From NCBI RefSeq assembly GCF_056746865.1, contig NZ_CM163382.1: a stretch of DNA of 64,000 bases. One strand, given 5' to 3'. Position 1 is the stretch's first letter. Each line of letters opens with the position of its first letter. Below the pieces are notes generated by a model, which searched no databases, was not told the DNA's origin, and worked only from the letters and a program-made list of their open reading frames with translations. Of the stretch, positions 22,922 through 54,432 are shown one piece after another. Made by a program: the position numbers and the translations under genes.

Positions 22922-24229
22922 ATTGGATGAGCCAGTCAAGACTCAATCATTTTTTGAACAAATAGATAAATTTTGCGCAACGGCAGTGAATACAGGAAAA
23001 ATCGTTTTGAGCGATTTTATTTATCTTTGATATCGGCTTTATTAATTCATTTAATCAATATATTAGCACTGATTACAATTATACCTTTTTATTATTCTGT
23101 GTCATGATGCTTCCGTTATTAGCCTTTTATCGTCTTGTTTATATTTTTTGGGCCGGCATGATGCCGGCTTTTTTTTATGCCTTCATTAATGTGCGCCTGA
23201 TCACACCAGCCGTTTGGCGCAACAATCATTGATACCCCCTATGTTTCCGCTCAACTCATAACATATTGATATACATTTATAATTTTCATGAATATTTATA
23301 TTTAGAATTCATAATTCTGAATTATATTAAATAGATTAGAAACATTTTGAAATCTTTTAAATACATTTGTTACATGTAATCCTTAAAATAAAATGAACTT
23401 CATAGAATAGTATCCAAATGTGCTTTTTTTGGATAACGGCACTTATTGATATATTCATGAAGATTATAATCACAAGGGAATACATAATGAAAAGAAAAGT
23501 TCTGGCAATGCTGGTCCCGGCGTTATTAGTTGCTGGCGCAGCAAATGCGGCTGAAATTTACAATAAAGATGGCAATAAAGTTGATTTCTACGGCAAGATG
23601 GTTGGCGAACGCATCTGGTCAAATACTGATGATAATAACAGCGAAAACGAAGATACCTCCTATGCTCGTTTCGGTGTTAAAGGTGAAACCCAAATCACCA
23701 GCGAACTGACTGGTTTTGGTCAGTTTGAATACAACCTCGACGCCAGCAAGCCCGAAGGCTCTAATCAGGAAAAAACCCGTTTAACCTTCGCAGGTTTGAA
23801 ATATAACGAGTTAGGATCTTTCGACTATGGTCGTAACTACGGTGTTGCTTATGATGCCGCAGCTTATACCGATATGTTAGTTGAATGGGGTGGTGATTCC
23901 TGGGCTTCCGCTGACAACTTCATGAACGGTCGTACCAACGGTGTTGCAACCTACCGTAACTCTGATTTCTTTGGTCTGGTTGATGGTCTGAATTTTGCTG
24001 TGCAATATCAAGGTAAGAACAGCAATCGTGGCGTTACTAAACAAAACGGTGATGGCTATGCGTTGTCTGTAGACTACAACATCGAAGGTTTTGGTTTTGT
24101 AGGTGCATATAGCAAATCTGATCGTACTAATGAACAAGCTGGTGACGGCTACGGTGATAACGCTGAAGTGTGGTCATTAGCAGCCAAGTATGATGCAAAT
24201 AATATCTATGCAGCGGTAATGACTCCAAC

Positions 24230-24733
24230 TTATTGATAGTGTTTTATGTTCAGATAATGCCCGATGACTTTGTCATGCAGCTCCACCGATTTTGAGAACG
24301 ACAGCGACTTCCGTCCCAGCCGTGCCAGGTGCTGCCTCAGATTCAGGTTATGCCGCTCAATTCGCTGCGTATATCGCTTGCTGATTACGTGCAGCTTTCC
24401 CTTCAGGCGGGATTCATACAGCGGCCAGCCATCCGTCATCCATATCACCACGTCAAAGGGTGACAGCAGGCTCATAAGACGCCCCAGCGTCGCCATCGTG
24501 CGTTCACCGAATACGTGCGCAACAACCGTCTTCCGGAGCCTGTCATACGCGTAAAACAGCCAGCGCTGGCGCGATTTAGCCCCGACATAGCCCCACTGTT
24601 CGTCCATTTCCGCGCAGACGATGACGTCACTGCCCGGCTGTATGCGCGAGGTTACCGACTGCGGCCTGAGTTTTTTAAGTGACGTAAAATCGTGTTGAGG
24701 CCAACGCCCATAATGCGGGCAGTTGCCCGGCAT
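24230..24733 (-). CDS. insB: IS1 InsB (expressed as InsAB' by -1 frameshift)
   Basis: 167-aa ORF overlapping insA; A6C slippery run at about 24668..24676. Confidence 0.93.
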
Positions 24734-24927
24734 CCAACGCCATTCATGGCCATATCAATGATTTTCTGGTGCGTACCGGGTTGAGAAGCGGTGTAAGTGA
24801 ACTGCAGTTGCCATGTTTTACGGCAGTGAGAGCAGAGATAGCGCTGATGTCCGGCGGTGCTTTTGCCGTTACGCACCACCCCGTCAGTAGCTGAACAGGA
24901 GGGACAGCTGATAGAAACAGAAGCCAC
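24652..24927 (-). CDS. insA: IS1 InsA
   Basis: 91-aa [26 protein letters not shown]... Confidence 0.93.
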
Positions 24928-25380
24928 TGGAGCACCTCAAAAACACCATCATACACTAAATCAGTAAGTTGGCAGCATCACCCTATGCAGCAATGATGTA
25001 CGGTGAAACCCGCAACATGACCGTTTTGGCTAATGATCATTTTGCAAATAAAACCCAAAACTTTGAAGCTGTTGTACAGTATCAGTTCGACTTCGGTTTA
25101 CGTCCGTCTTTAGGCTACGTATATTCCAAAGGCAAAGATCTTTATGCTCGTAATGGACATAAAGGTGTTGATGCTGACCGCGTAAATTATATCGAAGTTG
25201 GTACCTGGTACTACTTCAATAAGAACATGAACGTCTACACAGCATACAAATTTAACCTGCTGGATAAAGACGATGCAGCGATTACCGATGCCGCAACTGA
25301 TGACCAGTTTGCAGTTGGTATCGTCTACCAGTTCTAATCAGCCAACGCGCCGCGGCGTGTTACTGTAAAACATAACACTA

Positions 25381-34644: not shown

Positions 34645-34720
34645 TCCTCTGTAGTTCAGTCGGTAGAACGGCGGACTGTTAATCCGTATGTCACTGGTTC
34701 GAGTCCAGTCAGAGGAGCCA
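34645..34720 (+). tRNA. asnT: tRNA-Asn (asnT)
   Basis: 76-nt TCCTCTGTAGTTCAGTCGGTAGAACGGCGGACTGTTAATCCG...GAGGAGCCA. Confidence 0.95.
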
Positions 34721-34797
34721 GATTCAAGTTTTCATGCTTATCTGTACGTTTATATTTGTTTACGATTCAGTAAGTTAGCGTGAAAATCCTTGCCGGT

Positions 34798-34869
34798 GCG
34801 TATCTGGTTTTATCTCCGCATCGGGATAATTTGGTGGTCAGATCTGGGGTCAGTTTGGTTCGATTCTGG
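34798..34869 (+). repeat. Short direct repeats (GTATCTGG / AGATCTGG / CGATTCTGG) between asnT and the integrase start; candidate integrase arm-type sites
   Basis: Three related octamers at about 34800, 34840 and 34861, plus two GGTCAG copies. Confidence 0.35.
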
Positions 34870-34882
34870 AGTGACCCCCAAA

Positions 34883-36151
34883 ATGTCTTTAAACGATTCT
34901 AAAATCCGCAAGTTAAAATCTTCTTCCCGTCCGGTAAAACTCTCCGACTCTCACGGTCTGTATCTGCTCGTCAATCCGGGCGGTTCGCGCATCTGGTATC
35001 TCAAATATCGTTTCAACGGAAAAGAATCCAGAGTCAGTCTTGGCGCATACCCGCTGGTCTCACTGGCAGAAGCCAGGCAACAGCGCGACGGTATCCGCAA
35101 GTTACTGGCGCAGAATATCAACCCGGCGCAGCAGCGCATGGCAGAGAAAGCCGCCTGCTCCCCTGAAAAGTGCTTTAAAGCGGTGGCGGTGGCGCTGGCC
35201 TGGCACAAAACCAACAAAAAATGGTCGGCTGATTATGCCGCCCGTATTCTCGCCAGTATGGAAAACCATATCTTCCCGGCGGTTGGTCATTTGCCCGTTG
35301 CCAAACTTAAAACGCAGGATTTCACTGCCCTGCTGAGGGTTATTGAGGATAAGGGCTTTCTGGAAGTCGCGTCCCGCACGCGGCAGCAACTCAGCAACAT
35401 CATGCGCTATGCCGTATAGCAGGGGCTTACCGAAAGCAATCCGGCGCAGCATCTGGATGGCGTTGTCTCCTCCCCCGTAAAGAATCACTACCCCGCGTTA
35501 CCGCTGGAGCGGTTGTCCGAACTGCTTGGCCGCATCGGTGACTATCAGCAGGGCCGGGAGTTAACCCGGCTGGCGGAGGTGCTGACACTGCACCTGTTCA
35601 TCCGTTCCAGCGAACTGCGTTTCGCCCGCTGGAGCGAGATCGATTTCAGGCACAAAATCTGGACCATCCCCGCCACCCGCGAGGCCATCGACAAAGTTCG
35701 GTTTTCGGGGCGTGGCGCAAAAATGCGTACTCCGCATATCGTACCGCTCTCCCGCCAGGCGATTGCCCTTCTGAAACAGATACAGGAGCTTTCCGGCCAT
35801 CTGGATCTGGTGTTTCCCGGCGATCATAATCCGTACAAGCCAATGAGCGAAAACACAACCAACCGGGCGCTGCGCCTGATGGGGTATGACACGAAAACTG
35901 AAATCTGCGGGCATGGACTCAGGGCAATGGCCTGTAGCGCCCTGGTGGAGTCGGACCTGTGGTCACGCGATACGGTGGAGCGGCAAATGAGCCACCAGGA
36001 GCGCAACAGCGTGCGGGCGGCATATGTGCATAAAGCAGAGCATCTGGAGGCCAGAAAGGCCATGATGCAGTGGTGGTCGGATTATCTGGATGTGTGCCGC
36101 GAGGGGTATGTTGCGCCGTACATTTATGCCCGGCAGCATAAGGCAGCCTGA
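34883..36151 (+). pseudogene. P4-type tyrosine integrase at asnT, interrupted by a single in-frame TAG at 35417..35419
   Basis: ORFs 34790..35419 and 35513..36151 share one frame and are separated only by TAG; N-terminal SLNDSKIRKLK arm-binding-type domain; C-terminal catalytic region. Confidence 0.85.
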
Positions 36152-36186: not shown

Positions 36187-36217
36187 CAGATCCTGATTGA
36201 CCGGGATCTGTTTTTTT
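36187..36217 (+). terminator. Rho-independent terminator after the integrase gene
   Basis: CAGATCC...GGGATCTG hairpin followed by TTTTTTT. Confidence 0.7.
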
Positions 36218-36320
36218 GTATTGAGAGGTATTGTCGCTGTTTTTGTTATTATTAATTGGGAAGCACCGAAAATTATTCCAGTAGAATATTTGCAGTCGAT
36301 TGCCTATTAATAAATGCATT

Positions 36321-36660
36321 ATTGATAGATAATTACCTTCTGTGATTTGCCTGCAAATCACAGAAGATGAAAACCTATCAATACGGGATATTTTCACGAA
36401 AATACAAATTAATACTCCAGAATATCTGCACCAGAATATCTCCTGACCCTATACTCTGAAACCTGTAAGAACTGCATCAGATATTCAGAAACCAGACAGA
36501 TATAAGCCTGAAATTATTTGGCGTCCAATGATTTCAGGCGAAACCTATCAATGCATCTGTTTTCAACAGGCAGCCACCTTCCGTGATTCACATGTTAATC
36601 ATGGAAGGTGAAAAGCTATCAATAATCGACATTTCCACGGAATTACCACTTAATACATCC
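36321..36660. repeat. Array of three related modules, each a hairpin (palindrome) followed by a conserved box GAAA(A)(C/G)CTATCAAT-N5-a(t/c)aTTT(t/c)CA(c/a); plus one inverted box copy
   Basis: Palindromes 36337..36366 (perfect 14-bp arms), 36506..36539, 36575..36610; CTATCAAT at 36375, 36545, 36616; inverted ATTGATAG at 36321; no ORF. Confidence 0.6.
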
Positions 36661-37461
36661 CCAAAAATGCGCCATAAAATACCGGACAATCTTTCCTGAT
36701 ACAGATTATCACTGCACCAGCTATACGGAGACAAAATAATCTGCACCCGTCCTGGATAATCTGCTATCTGCGCCAGCGTCCCGCCGCTCTACCTGTTCAG
36801 TGCTGCGCCAGTACCTGGCCCTTTAGTTTTTGGCCCTTTCAGGTCAGGCGCTGTTCCCCTTATCGCCCCCTTAACCTTTATGACCCTTTCCCTTTCTGGC
36901 GCAGCCAGTTTATTTGGAAATGCTCCATGACAGTCTGCACCAGACTGTATTTTCACCACAGGATAACAATCACAAAGTGCAAAAAATAACATGAAGCACC
37001 GAAGATTCTTAATTCATATGAAGCAGGTTATTATGCCAAAAACCGTCGCAGCATTTTTATAAAATCATGAGGCATCCTGAGACCATATAATATATGTCAC
37101 AGGATACGGAAAAACACAGAGAGAATTATTCAGATATAACCCTGTGCCAGAATTAATGTGATGCCCCGGTGAATTTACATTTTAAAATTTTCCCAGCCCT
37201 GTAGTATTGGTAAAAATGATTGAAACACCTGTTATTAACAGAGAGCATTTCGTGTGATTACAGGGGTAATCACTATAATATTCCGACAAACTATATTGGT
37301 TAAGCAGGAGAATCTGATCTGTTGATATTTATTCGTCATGCTGTAACGATATTTTCACAATATAAACCCGTTCGCCCCCTGCGCCAGATCCGGAACATAG
37401 GGTACGATAAATCGCTGTCGTTACGCAGTAACGTACTATTTTGCGACATTCATGAATTCAG

Positions 37462-38346
37462 TTATTCCTCCCTCCAGCGGTATCCATACACCTGTTTCAC
37501 CCAGCGACCGCGACCGTCGCCATGACCCAGATCCGTCGCCGTCAGCGCCAGGGATTCCTTTTCGCTGAATCCCTGCGCCAGATAATGGCGGATCGCATCC
37601 TGCGCCCAGGCATAGCGCAGGGAGTGAGGGGAAAATTCCCCCTTCAGCCCCACCTTAATGACCTGTTTGTGCCAGCTCTCCAGCGCCATTTTGAGATCAG
37701 GCTTGTCGATCAGCCTGCCATTGTGTCGATCCGCGACCAGTAAGGCCTTTTCCAGAGCCTTCCTGACTGCGCCAGTATCCAGAACTGTCGTATGGCGGGG
37801 ACGCCCACCTTTGGTGCCAAACACCACTTTCAGCCGGTTTTCCCCGCGCTCAATGGCTTTCAGCCACGTTTTCAGCGACAGTGAACTCTGTACCGCTTCC
37901 TGCGAGCGTAACCCCATCAGTCGCGCGATCTCCAGCGCCGCAGCCAGCCCCGCATCCTCAGCGCGGGCTTTCTCCATAACCTGCTGGTAATGTTCCGGCG
38001 TAATGGCGCGGCGCGTACCGTTGCGTGAAGCGCCCGACACTCCCAGCGCCTTATTGGTTAGGCGTGGATGCTCCACCACCTGCCTGCGTCCAGCCTGTCT
38101 CAGCACGGCCTGCAGTGCCGCCATGTCGTTTTGCAGCGTTCGTAAACCAATATCCTGCTCCAGCCGTTCCTCAATGTAGCATTCGATATGGCGAACCCTG
38201 ATCTGCTCCACCCGCTGGATCTGGATATTCAGCGCCCGTAAATGTTCACTGAACCGTTTTGTAATATGGATACGGTCATTCACTGTTTTAAAGCTGCCGC
38301 CCGCTTTCTTCGCCAGCGCCTTCATTTCACTGCTTAATTTACTCAT
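37462..38346 (-). CDS. Tyrosine-type site-specific recombinase / integrase-family protein (294 aa), second recombinase of the asnT islet
   Basis: C-terminal HSLRYAWA...DLGHGDGRGRWVKQVYGY resembles the H-x-x-R ... catalytic-Y region of tyrosine recombinases; AGGGGA Shine-Dalgarno upstream of ATG. Confidence 0.6.
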   Translation of the reverse strand: MSKLSSEMKALAKKAGGSFKTVNDRIHITKRFSEHLRALNIQIQRVEQIRVRHIECYIEERLEQDIGLRTLQNDMAALQAVLRQAGRRQVVEHPRLTNKALGVSGASRNGTRRAITPEHYQQVMEKARAEDAGLAAALEIARLMGLRSQEAVQSSLSLKTWLKAIERGENRLKVVFGTKGGRPRHTTVLDTGAVRKALEKALLVADRHNGRLIDKPDLKMALESWHKQVIKVGLKGEFSPHSLRYAWAQDAIRHYLAQGFSEKESLALTATDLGHGDGRGRWVKQVYGYRWREE

Positions 38347-38935
38347 GAATCCCCTGCAACATAAACAAACAGTCTCCGGCGTGTGCTGTTTGGCTGCGCC
38401 AGAACGATACCTTCACGCCGGAGTGGCTGGTTGTTGAGGTTTAGGGAGTTTCAGGCTGTACGCGGTACAGACTGCCTGACGAAGCAGGGGTGTCTCCGGA
38501 GCATCGTGCCCCCCCTCGGTATCGATCTTTTTCTCCTTTACTCTGAGCTGACAGCGGCCCCAAAGGGCATGTCAGACGGCGGAAATATGGCGCAGGCCGG
38601 GACTGGCGCGGCTTGCGGCGGTATGTTGTGCAGCGTCACTTTGCCCTGTCGCTGGCGCGACCAGAGTGACACCTCGTCTGGTGCAGAGGGTAAACGTTGC
38701 GTTTCTGGTGCAGGGTGACGGTCACGCGGCAGCAAAGCCTGCTGTCTTTGCAGGCCGCAGCCCGTCAATGTAAGGCGCGGGTTGTCAGCAGAAGATAAAA
38801 CCCGGCAAAGCCAGAGTGCCAGCCCGTAAAGCCGGGTAAGCATGGCTACGAAGAAGAGAAGTGGAGAAAAAATAAATGACCGACAAATCTTATGCGGGAT
38901 GGGAATTAAACTACGCCGCTTAACTGCGGGTAACG

Positions 38936-41900
38936 GTGACCTTCACCATGCCACAGGACGTTGCGGCAAACTTTACCCTCGAAAATAACGGCATTGCCAT
39001 CACCCAAGCCAATGGGGAAGCGCATGTCACGCTGAAAGGTAAAAAAGCGGGTACGCATACGGTTACCGCAACGCTGGGTAATAACAATACCAGTGATTCG
39101 CAGCCGGTAACGTTTGTGGCGGACAAAACCTCGGCTCAGGTTGTCCTGCAGATGTCAAAAGATGAGATCACAGGTAATGGCGTCGATAACGCAACGCTAA
39201 CTGCAACGGTTAAAGATCAGTTCGACAATGAGGTGAATAATCTTCCGGTAACATTCAGCTCAGCCTCTTCAGGACTCACCCTGACCCCGGGAGTAAGTAA
39301 TACCAATGAGTCTGGCATCGCGCAGGCCACTCTCGCAGGCGTTGCCTTTGGTGAGCAGACGGTCACTGCATCACTGGCTAATAATGGTGCCAGCGACAAC
39401 AAAACTGTGCATTTTATTGGCGACACAGCAGCGGCAAAAATTATCGAGTTGACGCCTGTCCCAGACAGCATAATCGCCGGTACCCCGCAGAACAGCTCCG
39501 GCAGCGTCATCACCGCCACAGTCGTTGATAATAATGGCTTTCCGGTGAAAGGTGTGACTGTGAACTTCACCAGCAGAACAAACTCTGCCGAAATGACGAA
39601 TGGCGGCCAAGCCGTAACGAACGAACAGGGTAAGGCTACCGTCACTTATACCAATACCCGCTCCTCGATAGAATCAGGAGCGAGACCGCATACCGTTGAG
39701 GCCAGTCTGGAAAATGGTAGCTCCACGCTTAGCACATCAATTAATGTCAACGCTGATGCGTCTACGGCACATCTCACCTTGCTACAGGCACTTTTTGATA
39801 CAGTCTCCGCAGGCGACACTACCAATCTGTATATTGAGGTGAAGGATAATTACGGCAACGGTGTACCCCAGCAGGAGGTAACCCTCAGAGTATCACCAAG
39901 TGAAGGCGTGACCCCCAGTAATAACGCTATATATACTACCAACCACGACGGCAATTTTTACGCAAGCTTTACCGCTACAAAAGCCGGGGTTTATCAAGTG
40001 ACGGCAACCCTCGAAAATGGCGATTCGATGCAACAAACAGTGACCTATGTGCCGAACGTAGCGAATGCTGAAATCACGCTGGCAGCCTCGAAGGATCCGG
40101 TGATTGCCGACAATAACGATATCACGACACTAACAGCAACAGTCGCTGATACAGAGGGCAATGCGATAGCCAACACTGAGGTAACATTTACTCTGCCGGA
40201 AGATGTGAGGGCGAACTTCACGCTGAGCGATGGCGGTAAAGCGGTTACTGATGCCGATGGCAAAGCGAAAGTCACGCTGAAAGGTACAAAAGCAGGCGCT
40301 CATACTGTTACAGCATCGATGGCTGGCGGTAAGAGTGAGCAGTTGGTGGTGAACTTTATTGCGGATACACTCACTGCGCAGGTTAATCTTAACGTTACCG
40401 AGGACAATTTTATCGCTAATAACGTCGGGATGACCAGGCTGCAGGCAACAGTGACTGATGGAAACGGCAACCCGTTAGCCAATGAGGCGGTGACATTCAC
40501 GCTACCGGCAGATGTGAGCGCAAGCTTTACTCTCGGACAAGGCGGTTCCGCCATTACTGATATCAACGGCAAGGCTGAAGTTACACTGAGCGGTACAAAA
40601 TCCGGCACCTACCCCGTGACAGTTAGCGTGAACAATTATGGTGTCAGTGATACGAAACAGGTGACTTTGATTGCCGATGCTGGTACCGCAAAACTAGCCT
40701 CATTAACCTCTGTATACTCTTTCGTCGTCAGCACGACCGAGGGCGCGACCATGACTGCAAGCGTCACTGACGCTAACGGCAACCCGGTAGAAGGCATAAA
40801 AGTTAATTTCCGCGGAACCTCCGTCACGCTAAGCAGCACCAGCGTTGAAACGGATGATCGGGGTTTCGCTGAAATTCTTGTGACAAGCACCGAGGTCGGA
40901 CTGAAAACAGTTTCAGCCTCTCTGGCAGATAAACCTACTGAAGTCATCTCGCGATTACTGAATGCAAAAGCAGATATTAATTCTGCAACGATTACCAGTC
41001 TGGAGATACCTGAAGGTCAGGTCATGGTCGCACAAGACGTAGCAGTTAAAGCTCACGTCAACGACCAGTTTGGCAATCCGATTCTTAATGAATCTGTAAC
41101 ATTCAGTGCAGAGCCACCAGAGCACATGACCATCAGCCAAAATATTGTCTCTACTGATACGCATGGTATAGCCGAGGTCACTATGACGCCCGAAAGAAAC
41201 GGTTCGTATATGGTGAAAGCATCCCTGGCGAATGGATCCTCTTATGAGAAGGATCTGGTGGTAATCGATTAAAAACTGACACTCTCGGCGTCCAGCCCGC
41301 TTATCGGTGTCAATTCCCCAACAGGTGCAACTCTGACGGCAACGCTAACTTCTGCAAATGGCACTCCAGTGGAGGGTCAGGTCATCAACTTTAGCGTAAC
41401 GCCAGAAGGTGCGACGTTAAGTGGCGGAAAAGTGGGAACCAACTCTTCAGGTCAGGCTCCAGTCGTTCTGACCAGCAATAAAGTCGGTACATATACGGTG
41501 ACTGCATCGTTCCATAACGGCGTAACAATACAGACACAGACAACCGTGAAAGTCACTGGCAACTCAAGCACCGCCCATGTTGCTAGCTTTATCGCTGATC
41601 CATCGACTATCGCCGCCACCAACAGTGATTTAAGTACCTTAAAGGCAACGGTTGAGGATGGCAGTGGTAACCTGATCGAAGGTCTCACTGTGTACTTCGC
41701 CTTAAAAAGCGGCTCTGCCACATTAACGTCATTAACAGCGGTGACAGATCAAAACGGAATCGCGACAACAAGCGTGAGAGGAGCGATAACGGGGAGCGTC
41801 ACGGTAAGCGCAGTCACGACCGCTGGTGGAATGCAAACAGTAGATATAACGCTGGTGGCAGGCCCGGCAGACGCCTCAAAGTCAGTCCTTAAGAACAATC

Positions 41901-42000
41901 GGTCATCATTGAAAGGAGACTTTACCGATAGTGCTGAGCTACATCTTGTTCTGCACGATATATCAGGCAATCCGATCAAAGTTTCTGAAGGGCTGGAATT
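38936..42000 (+). repeat. Tandem coding repeats of about 300 nt (bacterial Ig-like domains) within the yeeJ remnant
   Basis: Recurrent nucleotide and protein motifs (GTCACGCTGAAAGGTA..., TVTATL/TVTASM) at roughly 100-aa spacing. Confidence 0.6.
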
Positions 42001-42775
42001 TGTGCAATCAGGTACTAACGTGCCCTATATGAAAATTAGCGCAATTGATTACAGTCAAAATATCAACGGTGATTACAAAGCCACCATTACAGGCGGCGGA
42101 GAGGGTATCGCAACGCTGATCCCTGTATTGAATGGTGTTCATCAAGCTGGTCTGAGTACCACAATACAATTCACTCGCGCAGAAGACAAAATAATGAGCG
42201 GTACAGTATCAGTCAATGGTACTGACCTACCGACAACTACATTCCCTTCGCAGGGGTTCACCGGGGCGTATTATCAGTTGAATAATGACAACTTTGCCCC
42301 AGGAAAAACGGCGGCTGATTATGAGTTTTCAAGCTCTGCCTCCTGGGTCGATGTTGATGCTACCGGTAAAGTGACATTTAAAAATGTCGGCAGCAATTGG
42401 GAAAGGATTACGGCGACGCCAAAATCAGGAGGCCCTAGCTATGTATACGAAATCCGTGTGAAGAGTTGGTGGGTGAACTCCGGCGATGCTTTCATGATAT
42501 ACAGCCTTGCTGAAAATTTTTGCAGTAGCAATGGCTACACACTTCCCCGTGCAGACCATTTAAACCATAGTCGTTCCCGAGGCATCGGGTCACTGTACAG
42601 TGAATGGGGAGATATGGGGCATTACACGACTGAAGCTGGTTTTCAATCAAATATGTATTGGTCATCTAGTCCCGCAAACTCAAGCGAACAATACGTAGTT
42701 TCCCTGGCAACAGGTGATCAAAGCGTATTTGAAAAGCTTGGGTTTGCTTATGCGACATGTGATAAAAACCTGTGA
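38936..42775 (+). pseudogene. yeeJ: 3' portion of an inverse-autotransporter adhesin gene (yeeJ-like; Big_1 Ig-like repeats and C-terminal lectin-like domain), 5' half absent, with in-frame TAA at 41270..41272
   Basis: ORFs 38936..41272 and 41369..42775 share one frame, separated by one TAA; repeated VTFTLP...FTL...G.A.VTLKG.KAG.HTVTA units; homology begins abruptly at about 38924 with no signal peptide or beta-barrel region. Confidence 0.8.
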
Positions 42776-42796
42776 TTTTCCGTTATAATTTCTTAA

Positions 42797-42826
42797 AGAG
42801 TGCTCCATTCGGAGCACTCTTTTTTA
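42797..42826. terminator. Bidirectional rho-independent terminator between yeeJ and yeeL
   Basis: GAGTGCTCC-ATTC-GGAGCACTC hairpin followed by TTTTTT. Confidence 0.75.
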
Positions 42827-43036: not shown

Positions 43037-43191
43037 TCATATTCTCGCCAAAACACTTTTTAATGCCTTTGCGAATTCATCCAGACTTATATTGTCAATT
43101 TTTTGCCCAACGACGACTGACTCCGAAACATCGGCCATTGCGGGCCATCGCGTTTTGTAATCAGCATAAATTGCAACAACGGGAGTATTAT
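43037..43191 (-). pseudogene. yeeL: Displaced 3' end of yeeL (about 51 codons) left of the IS2 insertion
   Basis: Minus-strand frame continues the yeeL frame once IS2 plus one 5-bp duplication (1336 bp) is removed. Confidence 0.55.
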
Positions 43192-43202
43192 TGGATTTGC
43201 CC

Positions 43203-44108
43203 CTATATTTCCAGACACCTGTTATCACTTAACCCATTACTGGCCCGCTGCCGTAGATATTCCCGTGGCGAGCGATAACCCAGTGCACTATGCGGATGCC
43301 ATTCGTTATAATGCTCGAACGCCTCTGCAAGGTTCTTTGCTGCCGTTAACCCGTCTGGTTTAGGCATGATACTGATGTAGTCACGCTTTATCGTTTTCAC
43401 GAAGCTCTCTGCTATGCCGTTACTCTCCGGACTCCGCACCGCCGTGTTCTTCGGTTCAAGCCCCAACATCCGGGCAAACTGCCGTGTTTCATTAGCCCGG
43501 TAGCATGAACCATTATCCGTCAGCCACTCTACTGGAGACGCCGGAAGCTCGTTGCCGAAGCGGCGTTCCACCGCTCCCAGCATTACGTCCTGTACTGTTT
43601 CACTGTCGAAGCCGCCCGTAGTGACTGCCCAGTGCAGTGCCTCACGGTCACAGCAGTCCAGCGCGAACGTGACTCGCAGTTTTTCTCCGTTATCACAGCG
43701 GAACTCGAACCCGTCAGAGCACCATCGTTGATTGCTTTCTTTCACGGCCACTTTGCCAGTATGTGCCCGTTTCGATGGCGGTACAGCGGTTTTTCGCTCA
43801 AGCAACAGCGCATTCTGGCGCATGATCCGGTAAACACGTTTGGCATTGATCGCAGGCATACCATCAAGTTCGGCCTGTCTGCGAAGCAGCGCCCATACCC
43901 GACGATAACCATACGTGGGCAGCTCTCCGATAACATGGTGTATACGGAGAAGCACATCCGTATCATCTGAGTGACGGCTGCGGCGACCATCTTTCCAGTC
44001 ATCGGTTCGTCTGAGAATGACGTGCAACTGCGCACGCGACACCCGGAGACAACGGCTGACTAAGCTTACTCCCCATCCCCGGGCAATAAGGGCGCGTGCG
44101 CTATCCAC
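43203..44108 (-). CDS. insD: IS2 transposase OrfB (InsD)
   Basis: 301-aa ORF with DDE-transposase sequence. Confidence 0.93.
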
Positions 44109-44431
44109 TTTTTTGCACGCCCGTATTCAACGGCTTCTTTAAGGAGTTCATTTTCCATCGTTTTTTTGCCGAGCAGGCGCTGGAGTTCTTTAATCTGCTT
44201 CATGGCAGCAGCAAGTTCAGAGGCAGGAACGACCTGCTCTCCTGCGGCCACAGCAGTAAGACTTCCCTCCTGGTATTGCTTGCGCCAGAGAAATAACTGG
44301 CTGGCTGCCACACCGTGTTGCCGGGCAACAAGGGAGACCGTCATTCCCGGTTCAAAACTCTGCTGAACAATAGCGATCTTTTCCTGTGTAGTACGCCGTC
44401 TGCGTTTCTCCGGTCCTAAGACATCAATCAT
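44066..44431 (-). CDS. insC: IS2 OrfA (InsC)
   Basis: 121-aa product from [18 protein letters not shown]; overlaps insD for -1 frameshifting. Confidence 0.93.
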
Positions 44432-44522
44432 CTGCTCTCCAATGACTAGTCTAAAAACTAGTATTAAGACTATCACTTATTTAAGTGATATTGGTTGTCT
44501 GGAGATTCAGGGGGCCAGTCTA

Positions 44523-45488
44523 ATTATAGGCACTTGCCATATGTAATATTGAGGTGTCAGGAGTTATTGCGATATAAGCATCTTTTATGATTGCTGCTGA
44601 ACGTTTAATCGAGGGTGATAAGGATAAACGGTAGACATTATTATAACAATCCACTAATACCCTGGCTTTATCTTCCCCTTTTGGTCCATGAACGATCACT
44701 ATTGGTATATCTGTTTCACTTTGAATTTTTGCTATTAGATTTTCTGCAATCGATAATGAAAATGTACGTTCCTGCGAGCTACCTTCTAAATTAAGCGCAA
44801 TGTAAGATCCTAACGATCGCATTTCCTCGCGCACCTCATCGAGTACATCCTCACTTAGTGGCAATTCATATATTGGCCTGACTGCTGGAAAACCCGCCTC
44901 ACGCATCATAAATGCCCATGTCATGGGTACAGGAGCCCGGAGATTCTGATCCATCCGGGACGCGTTCTTGCACAAAGGGGAGTAGCACTTCATGGTTAAA
45001 CCAACAACCTGAAAATTCGTTTTTGCTTTTAACTGACTGATAAATATCATCGTTTTCAGGTTCTTTTTACGCATCGCCTCTATACAAAGATCCGGCGTAC
45101 CGTATTGCTGTGTTATGTTCTTTGCTAAATCTTTTATTTCTTTTAATGTTGCGTGATCCTGCATAGTCATTGTGACTAATGTTAATTTAGTCTTTTCAAG
45201 TTTAAGTGCATTAAACACTTCTAAATTAATTGTCGACGTAACAATTAAAAGATGCTTAATTTTATGCAATTCAAGCGCCCGAATAACAGGAAAGATGGCC
45301 ATAGCATCGCCAATCTGGTCGGGAATATGGATAACAACAAACTCTGTTTTTTCAATATTAAAATTATAAGCTTTATAATCGTAGTAACTAAATGCAATAC
45401 GTCTCAACAATGATGCTAAAAACATACCTAACCTCGCCTCCCTACTGGTTATAATGCATTGCAGTCTATCAGACTCATCATGGCGCAA
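44523..45488 (-). pseudogene. yeeL: yeeL, uncharacterised putative transferase, 3' end disrupted by IS2
   Basis: 322-aa ORF whose apparent stop codon lies inside the IS2 terminus. Confidence 0.7.
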
Positions 45489-50123: not shown

Positions 50124-50199
50124 TGGCTCCTCTGACTGGACTCGAACCAGTGACATACGGATTAACAGTCCGCCGTTCTACCGACTGAACTACAGAGGA
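50124..50199 (-). tRNA. asnW: tRNA-Asn (asnW)
   Basis: Reverse complement identical to the asnT sequence. Confidence 0.95.
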
Positions 50200-51947: not shown

Positions 51948-52023
51948 TCCTCTGTAGTTCAGTCGGTAGAACGGCGGACTGTTAATCCGTATGTCACTGG
52001 TTCGAGTCCAGTCAGAGGAGCCA
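51948..52023 (+). tRNA. asnU: tRNA-Asn (asnU)
   Basis: Identical 76-nt tRNA-Asn sequence. Confidence 0.95.
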
Positions 52024-54356: not shown

Positions 54357-54432
54357 TCCTCTGTAGTTCAGTCGGTAGAACGGCGGACTGTTAATCCGTA
54401 TGTCACTGGTTCGAGTCCAGTCAGAGGAGCCA
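54357..54432 (+). tRNA. asnV: tRNA-Asn (asnV)
   Basis: Identical 76-nt tRNA-Asn; upstream 27 nt identical to the asnT upstream sequence. Confidence 0.95.

Follow-up and report, generated by a model that had tools for sequence, protein, structure and literature searches.

A full-length copy of IS2 has almost certainly transposed recently into yeeL, between yeeJ and shiA, truncating the predicted glycosyltransferase gene; we put the probability of this reading at about 0.96. The insertion lies in a stretch of 64,000 nucleotides that was analysed as a whole (the window). The perfect target-site duplication, the identity of the flanks to strains with an empty site and the existence of an identical IS copy elsewhere show that the insertion in yeeL is recent, and it is specific to this strain or clone. 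The event is a real and ordinary example of already-known IS2 biology. The features of the element and of the interrupted gene are as follows.

43037–43186, minus strand: yeeL 3′ remnant, codons 302–350 and the stop codon (from the reconstruction)
43187–43191: left target-site duplication ATTAT, a single copy in empty-site relatives
43192–44522, minus strand: IS2 isoform of 1331 bp with 95.8% identity to K-12 IS2A (sequence comparison)
43192–43232, minus strand: IRR, 41 bp, the donor end, plus-strand tip TGGATTTG (IS2A alignment; PMC3299598)
43203–44108, minus strand: orfB (insD), 301 codons, rve integrase core (DDE) domains (IS2A comparison, Pfam)
44066–44431, minus strand: orfA (insC), 121 aa, HTH_Tnp_1 (IS2A comparison, Pfam)
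44108–44114, minus strand: A6G slippery site (AAAAAAG, IS positions 409–415; role from PMC3299598)
44481–44522, minus strand: IRL, 42 bp, the recipient end, identical to that of K-12 IS2A (IS2A alignment)
44523–44527: right target-site duplication ATTAT (flank comparison)
44523–45425, minus strand: yeeL 5′ part, codons 1–301, ATG at 45425 (ORF reading)
44541–44564, minus strand: candidate IRL-like target sequence CTCCTGACACCTCAATATTACATA, 19 identical positions and one gap against IRL positions 18–41

An earlier note on this DNA had described a 1331-bp IS2 flanked by ATTAT and spanning 43187–44527. This was right, the span being the element itself (43192–44522) plus both 5-bp copies. On the plus strand the element starts with TGGATTTGCCCCTATATTTCCAGACA and ends with GGGGGCCAGTCTA, which are the tips of IRR and IRL respectively, as for an element in reverse orientation. 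When both flanks were checked by script, they matched exactly at k = 5 only, with no longer match; the match at k = 2 was the AT common to both ATTAT copies. The 5-bp duplication expected of IS2 is thus present on both sides, and a flank match of this length would occur by chance about once in 1000. The only IS2 ends within the 64-kb window were those of this element.

Published IS2 has imperfect terminal repeats of 41 bp (IRR) and 42 bp (IRL) (PMC3299598). The present element is likewise about 1.3 kb long with 41- and 42-bp imperfect inverted repeats, the tips being ...CAAATCCA-3′ at IRR and 5′-TAGACTGG at IRL. Its termini had been called identical-looking, but they are imperfect repeats: an alignment of IRL with IRR contains one gap and agrees at 31 of 42 positions, in keeping with the published description (PMC3299598). 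IRR is the sole donor end of IS2 and IRL the recipient end (PMC3299598), and this asymmetry of the ends is functional. IRR departs from IS2A at a single base, the 27th from the tip (IS position 1305), and its terminal 26 nt are identical; the substituted base is also present in the IS2 copy of strain H10407. IS positions 1–87, which include all of IRL and the promoter region, are identical to IS2A.

The transposase genes are on the minus strand, and the element therefore has the same orientation as yeeL. Because both run in the same direction, yeeL translation stops after codon 301 at a TAG (44520–44522) formed by the first three bases of IRL. Removal of 43187–44522 joined the 5′ part in frame to 43186–43037 and restored an open reading frame of 350 codons, bearing out the claim that the yeeL frame continues across the site into 43037–43191. 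The number of codons lost, previously given as about 50, is 49 (codons 302–350). The gene lies between the convergent 3′ end of yeeJ, encoding an intimin-like protein, and the divergent shiA. Its identity as the yeeL orthologue is supported both by this position and by a comparison with K-12 b4497, which gave 31 differences in 1053 nt (97.1% identity). All 1053 nt of the reconstructed gene agree with the allele of ATCC 8739 (100% identity), and its product is identical to WP_000477878.1 at 348 of 350 residues. S. sonnei alleles of yeeL are K-12-like, unlike the allele in the window.

When IS2 and one copy of ATTAT were removed, the stretch between yeeJ and shiA was 100% identical over 1628 bp to that of E. 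coli AR_0061, in which the annotation gives yeeL as an intact gene for a family-9 glycosyltransferase (WP_000477906.1). We also examined eight relatives, in draft or complete genomes, that share the exact ShiA protein of the window and have flanks 98.9–100% identical to it. All eight contained the empty site GGGAGTATTATAGGCAC and the 350-aa gene. The flanks were 99.3–99.4% identical over 18 kb to the best-matching complete genomes, and 100% identical over 6.5 kb to some draft E. coli genomes. The check proposed earlier, to reconstruct yeeL and align it with intact homologues, thus favoured the insertion: E. coli homologues crossed the junction at full length with 348/350 or 350/350 identities. 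Homologues from E. albertii, Pseudocitrobacter, Erwinia and Rosenbergiella also spanned it, so that the observation named in advance as fatal to the claim, a reconstructed frame with no homologues through the junction, was not made.

Megablast searches of 5426 complete E. coli genomes with the whole region and with both 140-bp junctions did not find the exact insertion, and an exact search of the GTDB representative genomes with the left junction gave no matches. Two sets of apparent matches were discarded. H10407 and SEC470 matched the junction at full length, but their insertions are 3 bp away. Fifteen Logan contigs encoded a product of exactly 301 aa, ending at the insertion point. The end of one of these (L007), ...TATAATAC, is uninterrupted sequence, and neither the stop codon nor IS2 bases were found in any of the Logan contigs examined. 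The contig ends are most likely graph breaks at a nearby ACT/ACC polymorphism in mixed samples. Its absence from every complete E. coli genome in the collection makes the insertion useful as a strain or clone marker.

The identification of the element as IS2 was upheld. Compared with the K-12 reference copy IS2A (MG1655 381260–382590, insC1/insD1), it differs by 56 substitutions over the 1331 positions, without indels. Isoforms of an insertion sequence are defined in ISfinder by a nucleotide identity of about 95%, and the present copy, at 95.8%, is just above this threshold. A 100% identical copy is carried by plasmid NZ_CP102854.1. Copies at least 99% identical were found in 1780 records, and 99.9% identical copies occur on many plasmids and chromosomes, with as many as 16 in a single record. 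The NCBI label for this variant is only 'IS3 family transposase'.

The element has the two overlapping reading frames of IS2, orfA and orfB, in phases 0 and −1, together with the A6G site. In IS2, a −1 frameshift at A6G yields the OrfAB transposase (PMC3299598). Here the heptamer is in the right phase, and a −1 shift would join ...GRAKK to VDSARAL..., giving a 409-aa OrfAB without stops. The statement that insC and insD are intact was borne out: OrfA is exactly K-12 InsC1, despite 21 synonymous nucleotide differences, and OrfB differs from InsD1 at 10 amino acids and contains no stops or indels. Pfam searches detected HTH_Tnp_1 in OrfA, and HTH_21, rve and rve_3 in OrfB. Both transposase genes are intact, as are the A6G site and the ends, and many near-identical copies exist elsewhere; these are the grounds for reading the copy as active, and to judge by its sequence it appears capable of further transposition. 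IS2 is active in E. coli K-12, where 71 new insertions were recorded in mutation-accumulation lines (PMC5009759).

Two explanations would deny either the insertion or its activity. A repeat copy could have been misplaced in yeeL during assembly, and the fact that the junction is in no other public complete genome is compatible with this. Exact boundaries and a perfect duplication are, on the other hand, the signature of transposition, and misassembly does not produce them; here the element ends precisely at 1331 bp, the duplication is perfect over 5 bp and the site is single-copy in relatives. We therefore regard the chance of an assembly artefact as negligible. The copy could also be an inactive relic, since it departs from the experimentally studied K-12 copy by 10 amino acid changes in OrfB and one substitution in IRR. 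This is very improbable. The identity of the OrfA protein despite 21 synonymous changes indicates purifying selection, stops and indels are absent, the A6G site is intact, and the whole of IRL and the terminal 26 nt of IRR are those of IS2A. Moreover, identical or 99.9% identical copies are widespread, and the perfect duplication with flanks matching those of empty-site strains points to a recent insertion.

The event can be reconstructed as follows. A full-length IS2, a member of the IS2 group of the IS3 family, inserted into the yeeL coding sequence, probably by the copy-out/paste-in pathway through a figure-of-eight and a minicircle, both of which are intermediates of IS2 transposition (PMC3299598). 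Repair of the staggered target cut would have produced the 5-bp duplication ATTAT. Translation of yeeL now ends at the IRL TAG after codon 301, with the last 49 codons stranded beyond IS2, and the product is a truncated and probably inactive glycosyltransferase.

The host gene product is, by domain match and predicted structure, a family-9, heptosyltransferase-like glycosyltransferase. Pfam Glyco_transf_9 (PF01075) matched residues 232–321 of reconstructed YeeL, scoring 29.5 bits (cut-off 22; E = 5.9e-7). Queried with the protein sequence alone, the PDB gave no match, and a PDB profile search gave WaaC only, at E = 0.09. An AlphaFold model of the reconstructed protein, built on 16 homologues, had a mean pLDDT of 86.7. 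Its best fold matches in the PDB were the GT9 protein 3TOV, WaaF (1PSW) and WaaC (2GT1, 2H1F and 6DFE), with full-length alignments and TM scores of 0.64–0.73. The two Rossmann domains of a GT-B fold, arranged as in WaaC and WaaF, are thus present in the predicted model, as distinct from a solved structure. Literature searches found nothing functional on yeeL and no paper pairing yeeL with IS2.

Full-length homologues with 52–73% identity are present in E. albertii, Pseudocitrobacter, Erwinia and Rosenbergiella. In an alignment of 16 homologues from Escherichia, Pseudocitrobacter, Erwinia and Rosenbergiella, 14 columns within the lost residues 302–350 are invariant, and these include the motif Y..YKTRWP.M. 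In the model the lost segment forms strands 304–308 and 322–326 and the C-terminal helix 336–349. Loss of residues 302–350 should therefore destroy the C-terminal domain of the predicted GT-B fold, and it is likely that YeeL function is lost through the truncation. The yeeL gene is already a pseudogene in K-12, so that the phenotypic consequence of the insertion may be nil. The insertion is about 900 bp from the start of shiA, and a strong terminator hairpin of yeeJ lies at 42795–42822. As yeeJ is convergent and has this terminator of its own, no polarity on the downstream gene is expected.

Disruption of yeeL was surveyed in other strains (loci L001–L004, L013–L017 and L038–L044). IS2 was present in or beside yeeL in 58 of 5426 genomes. 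An apparent orientation bias disappeared once a query with flipped IS2 was included, with 33 genomes in the same orientation as the window and 25 in the opposite one. In 16 genomes examined individually the IS2 sites were all distinct, and 15 of the 16 had perfect 5-bp duplications. The exception was E. coli HCP8S3_I1 (L044), the only regional IS2 copy with mismatched flanking pentamers (CACTT and CTTTT), which suggests a rearrangement or a mis-set boundary. With the site in the window included, there are 17 distinct sites between window-equivalent positions 41016 and 45527, nine of them inside yeeL; IS2 was also found in the 3′ end of yeeJ and in both intergenic regions. The gene has been inactivated independently in many E. 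coli lineages, by IS2 at eight other in-gene positions, by IS1 (in H10407), and by nonsense mutations at codon 235 (Q235 to stop; K-12 and MB46) and codon 60 (TUM9754).

These repeated inactivations, by nonsense mutation, IS2 and IS1 in separate strains, raise the question of whether IS2 struck a gene under no selection and the insertion cost nothing, yeeL having earlier lost its function, been silenced or become dispensable in this lineage. The neighbouring yeeJ, which is broken in the window and lacks its 5′ part, would fit such a history. We consider it possible but on balance unlikely, since IS2 is the only lesion in the open reading frame, whose sequence is that of alleles annotated as intact, and since the family is conserved across genera at 52–73% identity with many invariant residues. 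A separate possibility is that the insertion was not random, the 3′ third of yeeL being a local hot spot for IS2 at which the IRL-like sequence perhaps tethers the transpososome. The independent H10407 insertion lies 3 bp away in the same orientation, 17 distinct sites (nine in yeeL) fall in the region, and 58 of 5426 genomes carry IS2 there. The IRL-like sequence at 44541–44564 is 13 nt from the duplication, resembles the protein-binding part of IRL, and has a score in the top 1.4% of the 85-nt windows of the analysed stretch. This match is modest, however, and two IRs were tested. By a rough estimate, one pair of sites within 3 bp among 17 in about 4.5 kb has a p of roughly 0.1–0.2, and the remaining sites are scattered and in both orientations (33 against 25 genomes). 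No IS2 target motif was found in 58 reconstructed duplications of new insertions (PMC5009759). Tolerance of insertions by a dispensable, AT-rich gene (the GC content of yeeL is 38%) would explain the clustering equally well. A local hot spot is accordingly improbable. We hold the wider proposal, that the yeeJ 3′ end and yeeL together form an IS2 hot spot, perhaps aided by the IR-like site, or that loss of a glycosyltransferase tied to YeeJ has been selected, to be equally doubtful. An ordinary recent transposition into yeeL remains the preferred reading.

Several other features of the window were noted. A complete 768-bp IS1 at 24215–24982, flanked by a 9-bp duplication, CTATGCAGC (24206–24214 and 24983–24991), interrupts an OmpF/OmpC-like porin gene with its start near 23418. 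Removal of IS1 and one copy of the duplication restores an open reading frame ending ...AVGIVYQF, and this is a second clean, recent-looking IS insertion in the window. A tRNA-Asn gene at 34645, in the position of asnT, is followed by a P4-type integrase split into two ORFs (34790–35419 and 35513–36151). The segment from 34645 to 36151 has the appearance of an island remnant at asnT, which is the site of the high-pathogenicity island in H10407. Three more tRNA-Asn(GTT) genes lie at 50124–50199 (minus strand), 51948–52023 (plus) and 54357–54432 (plus), giving with the copy at 34645 four genes with an identical anticodon within 20 kb. The yeeJ gene (36200–42775) lacks its 5′ part; the first Ig-like piece of its reading frame begins at 38936, and the frame is interrupted again at about 41272/41369. 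Truncated yeeJ beside asnT has been reported to be common (PMC5595812). An unrelated 294-aa ORF on the minus strand at 37462–38346 had no NCBIfam match.

For annotation, yeeL should be recorded as an IS2-disrupted pseudogene, with the 3′ remnant at 43037–43186 joined to it, and the IS2 should be entered as complete, together with its duplication. Beyond correct annotation the insertion has little significance. The recurrent, independent disruption of yeeL is a mild pointer to a dispensable or counter-selected GT9 gene beside the YeeJ adhesin gene.

In its anatomy the element shows no departure from known IS2. It shares with K-12 IS2A the length of 1331 bp, the OrfA protein, the orfA/orfB overlap with its A6G site, IRL, the 5-bp duplication and the HTH_Tnp_1 and rve domains, and differs from it by the 56 substitutions, the 10 OrfB changes and the one IRR base. 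The closest comparable insertion is that of ETEC H10407 (NC_017633.1 2254655–2255985; positions 4068–5398 of locus L004), 3 bp from the site in the window. It too is a 1331-bp IS2 in yeeL, in the same orientation and with a 5-bp duplication, but the duplication is GGTAT rather than ATTAT, the IS copy is 98.4% identical, and H10407 yeeL contains an additional IS1B further upstream in the gene. The offset, the different duplication, the IS divergence and the extra IS1B together show that the H10407 insertion is an independent event. The K-12 pseudogene b4497 occupies the same locus between yeeJ and shiA and has the same 1053 nt at 97.1% identity. It is interrupted by the change of Q235 to a stop and contains no IS, whereas the allele in the window keeps Gln235 and is disrupted by IS2 alone. 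The likeness of YeeL to WaaC (2GT1), WaaF (1PSW) and 3TOV extends to the predicted two-domain GT-B fold over the full length and to the PF01075 match. It is accompanied by only 12–15% sequence identity, and yeeL adjoins an adhesin gene rather than lying in the waa cluster.
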